64,000 nt of DNA from Anaerolineae bacterium (lineage in GTDB: Bacteria > Chloroflexota > Anaerolineae > Epilineales > Epilineaceae), in contig JBCLES010000005.1 of the NCBI GenBank assembly GCA_038913135.1, positions 12,216 through 76,215 on the forward strand, in the 5' to 3' direction. Under the pieces are notes generated by a model. The model ran no database searches and was not told the DNA's origin. It was given only the letters and a program-made list of their open reading frames with translations. Below are positions 60,968 through 63,785 of the stretch, piece by piece (positions within the stretch are counted from its first letter, which is position 1; the number at the start of each line of letters is the position of its first letter). A program made the position numbers and the translations under genes.

Positions 60968-61041
60968 GGTAGCGGGGGCAGGACTCGAACCTGCGACCTT
61001 CGGGTTATGAGCCCGACGAGCTGCCTCTGCTCCACCCCGCA
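60968..61041 (-). tRNA. tRNA-fMet (CAT), initiator
   Basis: Minus strand UGCGGGG-UG-GAGC..; anticodon loop CUCAUAA. Three G:C pairs (GGG/CCC) close the anticodon stem and positions 1:72 are unpaired (U.U). T-loop UUCGAGU. The 3' end reads ACC then U. Confidence 0.88.
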
Positions 61042-61101
61042 TCGAGGAACGGGAAGTATACGGGCCGCTAAGGGTTGGTCAAGCTCAGGCAACACGCAGC
61101 C

Positions 61102-61623
61102 TCACGCCATTTTTCGGGAAGCGTTCGGCTCGATGTACTTGCGCCAGCGCTCGTCGCCTTCGCTGATCGCGACGAAGGCCACGGCGACATAACGGGGCGG
61201 GCAAGGGGTTGAGCGGAGCTGCATCCCGGCTTGTGCCGGCGTCCGTCCGCCCTTCCTAAGATTGCAGCGCAGGCAAGCCGCGACGAGATTTTGCCACGTT
61301 CGCCGTCCGCCGTGTGAGCGCGGCACAACATGGTCGATAGTGAGCTCGTTTCGGGCGGTTGACGCTCCGCAATACTGGCAAGCGTAACCGTCCCGAGCGA
61401 GGATCCCGCGACGCGTGACCGGGAATGGGAATCGATACGGCACGCGCACATAGGCCACTAGTCGGATGACAGTCGGACGCGGCAACGAAAGGGATTCGGA
61501 GCTTATCCGACCCTCGCGCGCTTCGATCAGCTGCGCTTTGTCCTTTATCAGCAACACGATCGCACGCCGTTCAGAAACGACGTTCAACGGCGCGAATGAG
61601 GCGTTGAGGACCAGAACCGACAT
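61102..61623 (-). CDS. HNH endonuclease (COG1403-type, widely conserved small form)
   Basis: VLVLNASFAPLNVV... N-terminal domain, then CQYCG....LTIDHVVPRSHGG..TWQNLVAACLRCNLRKG, the HNH/zinc-ribbon motif. Confidence 0.88.
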   Translation of the reverse strand: MSVLVLNASFAPLNVVSERRAIVLLIKDKAQLIEAREGRISSESLSLPRPTVIRLVAYVRVPYRFPFPVTRRGILARDGYACQYCGASTARNELTIDHVVPRSHGGRRTWQNLVAACLRCNLRKGGRTPAQAGMQLRSTPCPPRYVAVAFVAISEGDERWRKYIEPNASRKMA

Positions 61624-61730
61624 CGCTCACGGTCTCCACGATGTAGATAACGCCCTTACGTCCCAAGGGCGTGTACTTCGATGATGACGCGCGAAAGTAT
61701 AGCGTTCTGATCGGGCCGTACAACGAACAA

Positions 61731-61759
61731 CGCCGCCACCAGAAATGCTGGCGGCGGCG
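61731..61759 (-). terminator. hairpin downstream of the last array tRNA (candidate terminator of the tRNA array)
   Basis: 12-bp stem with one A.C mismatch (61731-61742 pairs with 61748-61759), 5-nt loop. On the minus strand it is followed by TTGTTCGTTG. Lies 35 nt past the tRNA-Leu 3' end. Confidence 0.4.
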
Positions 61760-61793
61760 GTCGACTGAGGTGCTCAAAGTAACCGGTGCAGAA

Positions 61794-61880
61794 TGGTGCC
61801 GAGGGTGGGACTCGAACCCACACGGGTATAACCCCACGCGAGTTTGAGTCGCGCGCGTCTGCCAGTTCCGCCACCTCGGC
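61794..61880 (-). tRNA. tRNA-Leu (CAA)
   Basis: GCCGAGG acceptor, anticodon stem CGCGA/UCGCG, loop CUCAAAC, long variable arm (class II), T-loop UUCGAGU. CCA is encoded. Confidence 0.92.
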
Positions 61881-61927
61881 CGATTGTGAATGGCGATCGG
61901 CGCCGCAAGTCCTGCGGCATCGACGTA

Positions 61928-61999
61928 AGCCCACGGGCGGGATTGAACCGCCGACCTCGTTCTTACCAAGAACGCGCTCTACCACTGAGCTACGTGGGC
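61928..61999 (-). tRNA. tRNA-Thr (GGT)
   Basis: GCCCACG-UA-GCUC-AGUGGUA-GAGC; anticodon stem CGUUC/GAACG, loop UUGGUAA; T-loop UUCAAUC. CCA not encoded. Confidence 0.9.
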
Positions 62000-62036
62000 A
62001 GTGCGGTGCTGCCGGATACTCAAAACGGCACCACCA

Positions 62037-62114
62037 TGGTCGGGGAGAGAGGATTTGAACCTCCGACCTCGTCGTCCCGAACGACGCGCGCTAACCGGAC
62101 TGCGCCACTCCCCG
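62037..62114 (-). tRNA. tRNA-Pro (CGG)
   Basis: CGGGGAG acceptor; anticodon stem CGUCG/CGACG, loop UUCGGGA; T-loop UUCAAAU. CCA is encoded. Confidence 0.92.
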
Positions 62115-62157
62115 AAACGCATACGTGACACCCCCCTTGCAGACGTTGGTGTCACAG

Positions 62158-62231
62158 TGGGCGCGAGAGGACTTGAACCTCTGACCTCACGGATGTGAAC
62201 CGTGCGCTCTAACCAACTGAGCTACGCACCC
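62158..62231 (-). tRNA. tRNA-Val (CAC)
   Basis: GGGUGCG acceptor (U4.G69); anticodon stem CACGG/CCGUG, loop UUCACAU; T-loop UUCAAGU. CCA not encoded. Confidence 0.9.
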
Positions 62232-62374
62232 TCGAATCTTCGAACACTAAACCGAATAAAGTGGACAAGAGCGAACACAGACTCCGGCTGAGTTTCCAGC
62301 CGAATGGGCACTGGACTTCGACGAGCGTTCCGAATACCGAACTATCTGATGCCAACCGCCGGTCCATCTTAAGG

Positions 62375-62449
62375 TCGGGGCGAGAGGATTCGAACCTCCG
62401 ACCTCTTGGCCCCCAGCCAAGCGCGCTAACCGGACTGCGCCACGCCCCG
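62375..62449 (-). tRNA. tRNA-Pro (GGG)
   Basis: CGGGGCG acceptor; anticodon stem CUUGG/CCAAG, loop CUGGGGG; T-loop UUCGAAU. The 3' end reads ACC then UU. Confidence 0.92.
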
Positions 62450-62573
62450 TTTTTCCGCTCCGCCTGCATGTAGCTGTGTCGTTCTCAAGCTGTGCCGTAG
62501 TTTAGCCGTGTTGTGTTGTCGTGCCATGAAACTGTGCCGCAAAGATCAGATTGGCGTCGATCCTACGCTTCAG

Positions 62574-62645
62574 AGCGGGCGATGAGATTCGAACTCACGA
62601 CCCTCTGCTTGGGAAGCAGATGCTCTACCACTGAGCTACGCCCGC
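62574..62645 (-). tRNA. tRNA-Gly (CCC)
   Basis: GCGGGCG acceptor; anticodon stem UCUGC/GCAGA, loop UUCCCAA; discriminator U73; T-loop UUCGAAU. Confidence 0.92.
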
Positions 62646-62683
62646 ATGCCGCTCTAGGATCCGGTCGCTGTCACGATCTCCGA

Positions 62684-62756
62684 TGGAGCTGAGGGGATTC
62701 GAACCCCTGACCTCTTGAATGCCATTCAAGCGCTCTCCCAGCTGAGCTACAGCCCC
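62684..62756 (-). tRNA. tRNA-Ala (GGC)
   Basis: GGGGCUG acceptor with the G3.U70 identity pair; anticodon stem CUUGA/UCAAG, loop AUGGCAU; T-loop UUCGAAU. Confidence 0.92.
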
Positions 62757-62803
62757 GCTACTTCTGCATCACGCACCCTAGTCAAAACCGATGCGTCCGC
62801 GAG

Positions 62804-62883: not shown

Positions 62884-62957
62884 TGGGCGATCCAGGATTT
62901 GAACCTGGGACCTCTCCCTTATCAGGGGAGTGCTCTAACCAACTGAGCTAATCGCCC
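62884..62957 (-). tRNA. tRNA-Ile (GAT)
   Basis: GGGCGAU acceptor; anticodon stem CUCCC/GGGAG, loop CUGAUAA; T-loop UUCAAAU. Lies only 6 nt from tRNA-His. Confidence 0.92.
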
Positions 62958-62968
62958 TAACGCCTAGG

Positions 62969-63041
62969 CTCCACCGACTGGACTCGAACCAGTAACCCTC
63001 CGGTTAACAGCCGGATGCTCTGCCAATTGAGCTACGGTGGA
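62969..63041 (-). tRNA. tRNA-Asn (GTT)
   Basis: UCCACCG acceptor; anticodon stem UCCGG/CCGGA, loop CUGUUAA; discriminator G73; T-loop UUCGAGU. Confidence 0.92.
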
Positions 63042-63084
63042 AGGTGCGTGGCCACGTCGTCTCTGGAACGTGTGGCCACACGAG

Positions 63085-63157
63085 TGCCGAGGCCCAGACT
63101 TGAACTGGGGACTCCCTGATTTTCAGTCAAGTGCTCTACCAACTGAGCTACCTCGGC
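63085..63157 (-). tRNA. tRNA-Phe (GAA)
   Basis: GCCGAGG acceptor; anticodon stem CUUGA/UCAGG, loop CUGAAAA; T-loop UUCAAGU. Confidence 0.92.
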
Positions 63158-63160
63158 CCA

Positions 63161-63231
63161 AGGCCACGGCCGGAATCGAACCGGCGATGAGGGTTTTGCA
63201 GACCCTTGCCTTGCCACTTGGCTACGTGGCC
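63161..63231 (-). tRNA. tRNA-Cys (GCA)
   Basis: GGCCACG acceptor, U73 discriminator, A13.A22-type D-stem; anticodon stem AGGGU/ACCCU, loop CUGCAAA. Lies 3 nt from tRNA-Phe. Confidence 0.92.
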
Positions 63232-63236
63232 GGGAG

Positions 63237-63324
63237 CGGAGAGGGAGGGATTCGAACCCTCGACGGGCTTGCGCCCGCAACGGCTTAGCAGGCCGCTCCA
63301 TTACCAGGCTATGGTAACCTCCCC
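63237..63324 (-). tRNA. tRNA-Ser (GCT)
   Basis: GGGGAGG acceptor (G3.U70), 3-bp D-stem; anticodon stem GCGGC/GCCGU, loop CUGCUAA; 18-nt variable arm (GCGGGC/GCCCGU); T-loop UUCGAAU. Lies 5 nt from tRNA-Cys. Confidence 0.88.
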
Positions 63325-63351
63325 ACGATCTTCTCTTGTTAAGGTCACTGA

Positions 63352-63425
63352 TGGCTGGGGGACAGGGACTCGAACCCCGACCTACTGATCCAGAGTCAGT
63401 TGTACTACCGTTATACTATCCCCCA
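63352..63425 (-). tRNA. tRNA-Gln (CTG)
   Basis: UGGGGGA acceptor (U1:A72), G73; anticodon stem ACUGA/UCAGU, loop CUCUGGA. CCA is encoded. Confidence 0.92.
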
Positions 63426-63456
63426 AAAAAATCGCGGCTAGCCGAAGGTTGGCCGC
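63426..63456 (-). terminator. canonical intrinsic terminator inside the tRNA array (between tRNA-Glu and tRNA-Gln)
   Basis: Minus strand: 10-bp stem (63456-63447 pairs with 63434-63443, two G.U pairs), UUC triloop, then GAU plus a U run (7 T, the last being tRNA-Gln nucleotide 1). Confidence 0.6.
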
Positions 63457-63459
63457 AAG

Positions 63460-63532
63460 TAGCCCCTACGGGATTCGAACCCGTGTCTCCGCCTTGAGAG
63501 GGCGGTATCCTAGGCCTCTAGACGAAGGGGCC
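63460..63532 (-). tRNA. tRNA-Glu (CTC)
   Basis: GGCCCCU-UC-GUCU-AGAGGCCUAGG..., very similar to the E. coli tRNA-Glu scaffold; anticodon stem CCGCC/GGCGG, loop CUCUCAA. Positions 1:72 read G.U. Confidence 0.9.
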
Positions 63533-63575
63533 AAGACCTGACGATCCAACATGTTGGCCCGCGCCAAGGCCGGAG

Positions 63576-63603
63576 ATTCTAATGCGCGACCCGAGAGTGT
63601 CAA
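63576..63603 (-). promoter_or_regulatory. near-consensus sigma-70-type promoter inside the array, upstream of tRNA-Glu
   Basis: Minus strand TTGACA (63603-63598), 16-nt spacer, TAGAAT (63581-63576). A 43-nt leader follows, containing the 12-bp palindrome CCAACATGTTGG, before tRNA-Glu +1. Confidence 0.6.
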
Positions 63604-63623
63604 AGCTGCCGGGTCGCGGCAGG

Positions 63624-63697
63624 TGGCGGCGGTTGGACTTGAACCAACGACCTAGCGATTATGAGCCGCTCGCTCTGACCACCTGAGCTACGCCGCC
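63624..63697 (-). tRNA. tRNA-Met (CAT), elongator type (tRNA-Ile2/lysidine not excluded)
   Basis: GGCGGCG acceptor fully paired; anticodon stem AGCGG/UCGCU, loop CUCAUAA. Lacks the initiator GGG/CCC feature. The 3' end reads ACC then U. Confidence 0.85.
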
Positions 63698-63713
63698 ATG
63701 TGAAGCAATCATA

Positions 63714-63785
63714 TACCCCCGGCAGGACTCGAACCTGCGCACCCGGCTCCGGAGGCCGGTGCTCTATCCTCTGAGCTACGGGGGC
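63714..63785 (-). tRNA. tRNA-Arg (CCG)
   Basis: GCCCCCG acceptor (1:72 reads G.U); anticodon stem CCGGC/GCCGG, loop CUCCGGA; T-loop UUCGAGU. First gene of the array. Confidence 0.9.

Follow-up and report, generated by a model that had tools for sequence, protein, structure and literature searches.

How does a bacterial chromosome come to carry 17 different tRNA genes in less than 2 kb of DNA, and does such a cluster belong to the core translation machinery or to a mobile accessory element? We asked this of a stretch of Anaerolineae bacterium DNA (contig JBCLES010000005.1 of assembly GCA_038913135.1), hereafter the window, meaning all 64,000 nucleotides analysed, near one end of which lies a dense, co-oriented tRNA array. 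We put the probability at roughly 75% that the array is the main housekeeping operon for tRNA and RNase P RNA (rnpB) of an uncultured, Anaerolineae-like lineage of Chloroflexota, inherited vertically and cut on its 5' side by the end of the window. Three points make it unusual, namely a divergent rnpB embedded among the tRNA genes, the lack of tRNAs reading A-ending codons, and an HNH endonuclease gene of a kind common to mobile arrays.

ARAGORN found 18 tRNA genes in the 64-kb window, all on the minus strand, with 17 of them inside 61794-63785 (1,992 bp); the remaining 61 kb contained no further tRNA according to ARAGORN and Rfam. All 18 were supported by the Rfam model RF00005 at 42.8 to 76.6 bits (gathering score 29), the lowest score being that of the class II tRNA-Ser(GCT). 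Class II tRNA-Ser is usually the lowest-scoring tRNA. A preliminary description of the window had given coordinates and anticodons for all 18 genes that agreed exactly with ARAGORN, and the unusually large array that it reported is real; the covariance scoring it had proposed as a check rejected none of them. Starting from the window end, the genes, each found by both ARAGORN and Rfam (Rfam bit scores in brackets), are:

63714..63785, minus strand: tRNA-Arg(CCG) (67.6 bits)
63622..63697, minus strand: tRNA-Met(CAT), elongator (68.3 bits)
63459..63532, minus strand: tRNA-Glu(CTC) (60.7 bits)
63352..63425, minus strand: tRNA-Gln(CTG), with encoded CCA
63236..63324, minus strand: tRNA-Ser(GCT), class II (42.8 bits)
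63161..63231, minus strand: tRNA-Cys(GCA) (67.3 bits)
63084..63157, minus strand: tRNA-Phe(GAA), 3 nt past Cys (71.5 bits)
62967..63041, minus strand: tRNA-Asn(GTT) (69.9 bits)
62883..62957, minus strand: tRNA-Ile(GAT) (76.6 bits)
62803..62876, minus strand: tRNA-His(GTG) (66.3 bits)
62684..62756, minus strand: tRNA-Ala(GGC) (68.1 bits)
62573..62645, minus strand: tRNA-Gly(CCC) (73.8 bits)
62373..62449, minus strand: tRNA-Pro(GGG) (64.8 bits)
62157..62231, minus strand: tRNA-Val(CAC) (70.5 bits)
62037..62114, minus strand: tRNA-Pro(CGG), with encoded CCA
61928..61999, minus strand: tRNA-Thr(GGT) (68.8 bits)
61794..61880, minus strand: tRNA-Leu(CAA), the final array gene, with encoded CCA
60968..61041, minus strand: initiator tRNA-fMet(CAT) (64.3 bits)

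The 17 array anticodons were all distinct and served 16 amino acids, with none for Lys, Asp, Tyr or Trp, and position 34 (the wobble base) was C or G in all 18 window tRNAs, each of which had been described correctly before. The lone CAT tRNA at 60968-61041, separated from the 17-gene array by 752 bp, had an unpaired 1:72 position and a GGG/CCC anticodon stem when read from the sequence, which together identify it as the initiator. Spacers within the array were as short as 3 nt (Cys-Phe), 4 nt (Ser-Cys), 6 nt (Ile-His) and, in another case, 9 nt, and as long as 123 nt (Gly-Pro) and 141 nt (Pro-Val); earlier values had been within 1 nt of these, those of 3, 6 and 141 nt standing as they were and those of 5 nt for Ser-Cys and 124 nt for Gly-Pro needing correction. 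A CCA was encoded after position 73 only in Gln, Pro(CGG) and Leu(CAA), as had been noted. This mixed state is not a designed feature, since it differs between relatives: across four arrays compared, Gln alone kept its CCA in all four, and the other positions varied. Most of the CCA-less tRNAs had C or CC directly after the discriminator and then T (CT..., CCT...; in the window, for example, at 63713-63709 and 63084-63080), and this was so in all four arrays; these 3' flanks may be a CCA remnant or a processing signal.

The array is not peculiar to the window. Relatives were located through homologues of CoaX and HNH and through a DNA pattern spanning the Cys-Phe junction, the latter recovering L091, L097 and L099, and this brought the number of arrays to seven: those of the window and of loci L083, L091, L097 (with L106), L099, L116 and L118, from NCBI, ENA and JGI assemblies. 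The nearest named protein homologues came from 'Anaerolineae bacterium', 'Chloroflexi bacterium CFX6' and 'Chloroflexota bacterium'. The closest relative, L116, has an HNH protein 82% identical to that of the window on a 129-kb contig; L118 (HNH 61% identical) lies on a contig of 477 kb, L083 (CoaX 70% identical) on one of 152 kb, L097 with L106 (CoaX 48% identical) on one of 94 kb, and L099 (CoaX ~53% identical) belongs to the same metagenome-assembled genome (MAG) as L086 (GCA_009612875.1). All six relatives shared one order: Arg(GCG), Leu(CAG), Leu(GAG), a gap of ~430 nt, Arg(CCG), Met, Glu(CTC), Gln(CTG), Ser(GCT), Cys, Phe, Asn, Ile, His, Ala(GGC), Gly(CCC), Pro(GGG), Val(CAC), Pro(CGG), Thr(GGT) and Leu(CAA). 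Past the point at which the window ends, the relatives' arrays go on through rnpB to Leu(GAG), Leu(CAG) and Arg(GCG), which gives 21 tRNAs in L083 and L116 and 22 in L091, L099 and L118. The tRNA bodies were 94-98% identical to those of the window, set against only 48-70% for CoaX and 61-82% for HNH, and the spacers differed in both length and sequence. Conserved bodies between divergent spacers indicate orthologous genes under purifying selection. The two spacers flanking Pro(GGG) (62232-62372 and 62450-62572) are longer in the window, at 141 and 123 nt, than in L083 (39 and 55 nt) or L116 (107 and 59 nt); in the window the longer one held a terminator-like hairpin (62304-62283) and the shorter one short CGGCACAG/ACGACA repeats.

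The position of the initiator gene varied: it lay between Met and Glu in four of the six relatives, and after the array, before coaX, in the window, L083 and L116. The same initiator sequence as in the window was present in L083 and, within the array, in L091 and L097. The window lineage retains only the coaX-side gene and the L097/L106 lineage only the in-array one. Three CAT tRNAs occur in the region (initiator, elongator and Ile2-like); they differ in kind and therefore add no redundancy within it. Across the 64-kb window and the relatives' 20-kb loci no array anticodon was repeated, except for the initiator in one MAG; the array may hold the genome's only copies of these genes. The first array gene in the relatives was tRNA-Arg(GCG) (L083:7063-7139, L116:7226-7302, L118:7305-7379, L099:3166-3240, L091:5371-5447, L097:41-115). 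The usual bacterial counterpart is Arg(ACG), which is read as inosine. No tRNA with A at position 34 (A34) was seen anywhere in the loci of the array-bearing relatives, so the clade may decode CGN codons without TadA or inosine at position 34.

What fills the gap of ~430 nt is the first of the unusual points. Between tRNA-Arg(CCG) and the end of the window lie 215 nt that were conserved with L083 far above any inter-tRNA spacer, with 57 nt identical and hairpin arms that covaried. In L083, the sequence aligned to this piece (L083:7430-7835) matched RF00010, the Rfam model for RNase P RNA, over model positions 1-367 (E 1.6e-17, 60 bits), and matches over the same full length were obtained in the same array slot of L083, L097, L091 and L116 (E 1.6e-17, 1.4e-11, 6.6e-10 and 2.9e-7, respectively). 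The truncated window piece gave no match by cmscan. A profile of 409 positions built with nhmmer from four relatives, the window left out, matched window positions 64000-63793 at profile positions 197-409 of 409 (E 7.5e-48) and located rnpB in all seven arrays, including those of L118 and L099; the same clade profile detected no second rnpB copy among 122 loci. The window therefore contains, identified by the clade profile:

63793..64000, minus strand: 3' half of rnpB, divergent bacterial type A, cut by the window end

This 208-nt half gene was one of two parts that the preliminary description had missed, the other being the HNH gene between Leu(CAA) and fMet. Only 6-7 nt separate the end of the rnpB piece from tRNA-Arg(CCG), which lies downstream of it, and across the arrays this distance is 6-8 nt. 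The RNase P core (GAGGAA..., ACAGA...) was unchanged in all five sequences compared, and the P4 strands deviated from the bacterial consensus in a compensatory fashion (UUCCCAA with UUGGGGG), with further covariation inside the clade (CCCAA/TTGGG versus CCCGA/TCGGG, the latter in L099). RNAalifold predicted 122 pairs, 25 of them with compensatory, double-sided changes. On these sequence features, the RNA at the window end is a real type-A RNase P RNA, which may be catalytically active on pre-tRNA. As far as we found in the searchable literature, a bacterial rnpB embedded in a tRNA array has not been reported.

The promoter- and terminator-like signals suggest how the unit might be expressed. 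L116 and L083 share a candidate promoter P1 (TTGACA-17-TAGACT plus an extended -10) situated ~50 nt before Arg(GCG); in L118 a TTGACA-17-TATACT motif is farther upstream. Within the window, the candidate signals are:

63576..63603, minus strand: candidate internal promoter P2 (TTGACA-16-TAGAAT) in the 89-nt Met-Glu spacer, 11 of 12 consensus matches, same place in L083 and L116
61055..61082, minus strand: candidate promoter P3 (TTGACC-16-TATACT) before the initiator tRNA, identical motif in the same place in L116
61721..61759, minus strand: terminator-like hairpin of 12 pairs (10 G-C) with a T-rich tail, after Leu(CAA), found in the sequence and putative in function
60931..60960, minus strand: G+C-rich hairpin (GGGCGCGCC...GGCGCGCCC) followed by TTGTTG, between fMet and coaX, read from the sequence and missed by the consensus scan, a tentative terminator

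In the three genomes without an in-array initiator, the Met-Glu spacer kept the motif TTGAC(A/T)-16-TAGAAT, and its 3' third had diverged. A decayed initiator gene was considered for this 89-nt spacer and rejected, as it had no meaningful similarity to the relatives' in-array initiator and held a promoter-like motif instead.

As in L116, the full unit would comprise P1, Arg(GCG), Leu(CAG), Leu(GAG), rnpB, Arg(CCG), Met, P2, Glu, Gln, Ser, Cys, Phe, Asn, Ile, His, Ala, Gly, Pro, Val, Pro, Thr, Leu(CAA), the terminator, HNH, P3, fMet and coaX, and one or two long precursors would be transcribed from the operon. RNase P, cutting at the 5' end of each tRNA, would at the same time fix the short 3' trailer of the preceding one, because several spacers are only 3-9 nt long; maturation would then be completed by 3' trimming and by the addition of CCA, which most of the genes do not encode. 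Having tRNAs on both sides, rnpB would be cut out of the shared precursor by the enzymes that process tRNAs, and RNase P would thereby cleave beside its own 3' end. On the other side of rnpB, the distance from tRNA-Leu(GAG) was 14-15 nt in L091 and L097, 74 nt in L116 and 115 nt in L083. A gap of 14 nt is too small for a promoter, so at least in the L091 and L097 lineages rnpB is probably made within the tRNA precursor. The longest of these spacers is stretched to its 115 nt by a tandem repeat of ~13 nt (GCCGTAGTACAGA; L083:7330-7400) that is found only in L083. Readers of A-ending codons are encoded elsewhere, for example in a Pro(UGG)-Gly(UCC)-Ile2 cluster ~4 kb upstream in relatives.

The surroundings were those of an ordinary bacterial chromosome of ~63% G+C, with genes for SMC, RF2, glycosyltransferases, MurJ, CoaBC and CoaX, the CoaX gene ending 57 nt from the initiator tRNA. 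Upstream, L083, L116 and L118 shared VWA, the Pro(TGG)-Gly(TCC)-CAT tRNA cluster, Wzy_C and DsbA. Downstream of the array, genes for an OmpR-type regulator and a kinase came after HNH in L091, L099, L106 and L118; the block ran on through phoU-pstBACS and Kelch in L106 and L118, and in L106 further into coaX-coaBC-SH3-MurJ. The window and L116 continued with HNH, fMet and coaX-coaBC-SH3-MurJ, so that only the pho/pst block of ~9 kb was absent. The operon occupies a fixed chromosomal slot, with DsbA/Wzy_C on one side and coaX-coaBC beyond HNH, some lineages carrying the pho/pst block in between.

The preliminary description had leaned towards an accessory or mobile origin, and this leaning was not borne out. 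The same array occupies the same chromosomal place, in the same order, in six other assemblies reaching down to 48% CoaX identity, and the relatives share it together with both flanks wherever these could be read, the very outcome that had been named as counting against an accessory origin. Its composition, suggested as a check for foreign DNA, was normal (GC 0.58-0.63 in the array and 0.58-0.67 across the window). The proposed search for an integrase beyond the window end was also negative: no integrase, transposase or phage gene was present in any flank of the arrays examined, including the relatives' DNA past that point. By megablast, region 60500-64000 gave only single-tRNA matches among 50,697 phage records, and a phage origin was rejected on that ground; the array was not found among viral contigs either, and no plasmid counterpart was found at the DNA level. 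Nothing marks the locus as a prophage, integrative element or genomic island, as integrase and recombinase genes were lacking and composition was normal, att-type repeats around the array not having been searched for specifically.

The HNH gene provides one link to mobile arrays, and with it the likeliest alternative. The gene at the 3' end of the array is:

61102..61623, minus strand: HNH endonuclease gene, 173 aa, Pfam HNH_5 and HNH

Two CxxC pairs and a DH...N motif were intact in its sequence. Orthologues 61-82% identical directly followed Leu(CAA) in six of the seven lineages (L091, L099, L106, L116, L118 and the window), HNH having been lost in L083. The alternative is that a mobile, HNH-linked long array was acquired once by the ancestor of the subclade, became fixed, was joined to rnpB and replaced host copies that were then lost. 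In its favour, the window HNH was 42-48% identical over 83-97% of its length to plasmid HNH proteins, several of which accompany arrays: the HNH of Nostoc PCC 7120 plasmid delta (all8564 in PMC8421152; 41.8% identical) lies 200 nt upstream of a 24-tRNA array, a homologue in Nostoc flagelliforme precedes 10 tRNAs, and in two Mycobacteriaceae plasmids the homologue sits inside arrays of 27-28 tRNAs. Linkage of HNH genes to mobile tRNA arrays has been described before (PMC8421152, PMC6582537). The array is also long and non-periodic, unlike accretive arrays, its size was unseen in the Chloroflexi genomes surveyed earlier (PMC8421152), and loci of more distant Chloroflexota have no array beside coaX.

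Several results tell against such a domestication. Six of the 10 plasmid or chromid loci sampled had an HNH homologue without an array (five with no tRNA, and one in Sinorhizobium with a single tRNA-Leu ~900 nt downstream), as did two more distant relatives, L119 and L121; the family thus also occurs without tRNAs and is not diagnostic of a mobile array. A gene order shared with the HNH-linked plasmid arrays was looked for and rejected, as at most the Phe-Asn adjacency (Nostoc) was held in common. Plasmid arrays had 44% U34 or A34 species (U or A at position 34) compared to 0% here, rnpB was embedded in all seven arrays, both flanks were syntenic, and mobility genes were missing. HNH is the single feature that ties this chromosomal operon to mobile arrays, and we consider the domesticated-array explanation unlikely. 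The closest plasmid homologue of the window HNH (47.6% identical) was in Acaryochloris marina plasmid pREB6 (L104, 5995-9250), with no tRNAs nearby; it adjoins a methionyl-tRNA synthetase gene and a YlxR-family gene, and YlxR/RnpM has been linked to RNase P (PMC11622646).

Turning to decoding, U34 and A34 were absent from all 21-22 genes of each of the seven arrays, these arrays being orthologous and hence not independent trials. Drawing 18 of 46 typical species without any U34 or A34 has a hypergeometric P of ~4e-4, and of 5e-5 for the full 21. When conditioned on amino-acid families, P is ~1e-3 to 3e-3; this conditioning matters because eight anticodons (Phe, Asn, His, Cys, Ile, Ser-AGY, Met and fMet) have no bacterial U34 alternative, which leaves the other 13 as informative. 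Against the HNH-linked plasmid arrays the comparison was 0 of 21 versus 39 of 89 (44%; Fisher P = 5.8e-5). The lack of U34 and A34 exceeds chance and may have a functional reason. Known tRNA arrays favour core (G34/U34) isoacceptors (PMC4758250).

The relatives point to where the A-ending codons are read. A conserved three-gene cluster ~4 kb upstream in L083, L116 and L118 contains Pro(UGG), Gly(UCC) and a CAT tRNA, all of which read A-ending codons:

L116:2984-3229, L083:1551-1791 and L118:2844-3079: Pro(TGG)-Gly(TCC)-CAT tRNA cluster

The CAT tRNA of this cluster has the same T arm and acceptor stem as tRNA-Ile(GAU) and is therefore probably a lysidine tRNA-Ile2. From their anticodons, the tRNA genes look sorted by the third codon base that they read. 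Readers of A-ending codons that are kept out of the array yet clustered nearby provide a testable case of gene organisation by wobble class.

The same bias could instead mark a supernumerary set that duplicates tRNAs encoded elsewhere and boosts decoding of C- and G-ending codons, possibly under certain conditions only, like the stress-induced array of Anabaena. The presence of only C34 and G34 species fits this, as does a G+C content at third codon positions (GC3) of 0.70 in the genome; the neighbouring HNH gene recalls Anabaena, whose array and HNH gene are co-induced under translational stress, and one relative has two initiator genes. A booster set, however, would be expected to contain decoders of the most-used codons, and many are missing. 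The array decodes only C-, U- and G-ending codons, and in this respect the match with GC3-rich coding put forward in the preliminary description was sound, but its genes are not a codon-optimal set: there is no decoder for the most frequent Gly (GGC), Val (GUC), Ala (GCG), Thr (ACG) and Ser (UCG) codons and none for Asp, Lys, Tyr or Trp, and Gly(CCC) decodes the rarest Gly codon. We therefore rejected codon optimality as a full explanation. The in-window genes cover 41% of codons, and the full set with the three upstream genes 53%. Nor would a supernumerary set be expected to look as this one does, with canonical scores for all tRNAs, no anticodon occurring twice inside the array, strong purifying selection on the tRNA sequences across deep divergence, conserved order and location, and an rnpB inside all seven arrays without a second copy among the 122 loci. 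We regard an accessory role as very unlikely.

A chimeric contig, assembled or binned from tRNA-rich fragments of different organisms, is hardly credible: metagenome assemblies do often break here, but the order was the same in seven assemblies of separate projects, obtained through NCBI, ENA and JGI, and several contigs of 94-477 kb were continuously syntenic on both sides. The breaks themselves recur at or near the array. L001 starts inside it, L084 and L085 start at coaX, and L086 to L089 end 200-500 nt before coaX; likewise, the CoaX and HNH proteins of the window are also present in MAG GCA_038913165.1, whose 22-kb contig breaks inside the array. MAGs of this clade will as a result tend to under-report tRNAs and rnpB and score as less complete than they are.

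Returning to a vertically inherited housekeeping operon, the following points weigh against it. First, Chloroflexi were among the phyla with only short accretive arrays in a survey of cultured genomes (PMC8421152). Second, no array was present next to coaX in 59 CoaX loci of relatives with ≤44% CoaX identity or in L090, and this absence extends over more distant Chloroflexota and over other phyla. The older survey and the absence from distant relatives together indicate that the array is confined to a subclade. Third, the RF00010 matches scored 60 bits in L083, 46.2 in L097, 41.2 in L091 and 34.2 in L116, none reaching the gathering score of 100, which is why default Rfam scans of the window and L083 returned only tRNAs; the low score is accounted for by covaried P4 bases and changed peripheral helices around an intact core. 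Fourth, the promoters and terminators are consensus matches with a putative function. Fifth, GCA_009612875.1 has two initiator genes with identical bodies, one in the array (L099:4098-4171) and one before coaX (L086:218-291). Sixth, the window HNH belongs to a family found beside horizontally spread tRNA arrays, which would allow for an ancient, if unlikely, acquisition of the array.

Taken jointly, the observations would also allow a bolder proposal, which we consider rather unlikely: that tRNA genes are partitioned by third codon base, with NNY and NNG readers in the operon and NNA readers in the three-gene cluster; that rnpB shares a precursor with about half of its substrates and takes part in its own excision; and that HNH is a functional partner of long arrays and not a homing element. 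Were this so, the cell could set the ratio of the two decoder classes transcriptionally, the unit would be a self-processing 'tRNA maturation operon', and such arrays might be a chromosomal stock for mobile ones.

Among known systems, tRNA arrays catalogued from other genomes are close in form. A tRNA array unit has been defined as at least 20 tRNA genes at a density of at least two per kb (Tran et al. 2015, PMC4758250), in a paper that does not mention the phylum Chloroflexi. The window holds 18 genes of an array cut by its end, the orthologous arrays hold 21 or 22, and 17 genes in 1,992 bp amount to 8.5 per kb, so the full array qualifies as such a unit. In the scheme of Santamaria-Gomez et al. 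(2021, PMC8421152), it resembles an L-array in length, non-periodicity (21-22 genes) and HNH linkage, and departs from one in distribution: L-arrays are sporadic and spread horizontally, and here order and neighbourhood are constant in seven assemblies with no mobility gene nearby. Nor is it an accretive A-array, a class that is short, often periodic and built by local duplication (PMC8421152), as it has 21-22 different genes and no periodicity. The neighbours Leu(CAG)-Leu(GAG) and Pro...Pro are the sole hints of local duplication.

The Firmicutes provide a housekeeping counterpart. Bacillus subtilis has clusters of 16 and 21 tRNA genes downstream of rRNA operons. Such core arrays are likewise vertically inherited, make up much of a genome's tRNA gene complement and give polycistronic precursors; they differ in being attached to rRNA operons, in consisting mostly of G34 and U34 species and in often duplicating anticodons. 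A survey of them is given in PMC4758250. Rfam scans of the window and of related loci detected no rRNA gene. The tRNA operons of E. coli are like the array in that short spacers, here 3-9 nt, imply separation by RNase P, and unlike it in having two to seven genes, with rnpB separate and elsewhere. Tightly spaced polycistronic pre-tRNAs of E. coli need RNase P for their separation (PMC7049720).

For the embedded rnpB, the nearest parallel in arrangement is organellar. In yeast mitochondria, RPM1, which encodes the RNase P RNA, is flanked by the genes for tRNA-fMet and tRNA-Pro and shares a precursor with them. Both arrangements place an RNase P RNA gene between tRNA genes, so that tRNA processing would free the ribozyme, and RPM1 differs in being mitochondrial and encoding a much reduced RNA. 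With its own substrates on either side, such an rnpB would be expected to be synthesised together with them and to assist in its own maturation. In being real, below the gathering score and missed by standard annotation, the rnpB of this clade also resembles the divergent RNase P RNAs of Candidate Phyla Radiation (CPR) bacteria, which score under Rfam cut-offs (PMC8172020); it differs from these in belonging to Chloroflexota and in having an intact core. Genomes of the clade will accordingly seem to be without RNase P RNA.

A further comparison is with the HNH-linked plasmid L-arrays. Both have at least 20 co-oriented, packed and non-periodic tRNA genes with a homologous HNH gene beside or inside them. 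The plasmid arrays are sporadic, mobile, supernumerary and rich in U34 (39 of 89 U34 or A34), whereas the array described here is chromosomal and syntenic across deep divergence, lacks U34 and A34, has rnpB inside and shares almost no gene order with them. Long arrays outside the Firmicutes are currently regarded as horizontally acquired, redundant and often silent. An array that is long and HNH-linked, yet vertically inherited, non-redundant in the region seen and built around rnpB, blurs the line between 'core' and 'mobile' arrays and is a possible chromosomal relative of the mobile ones.

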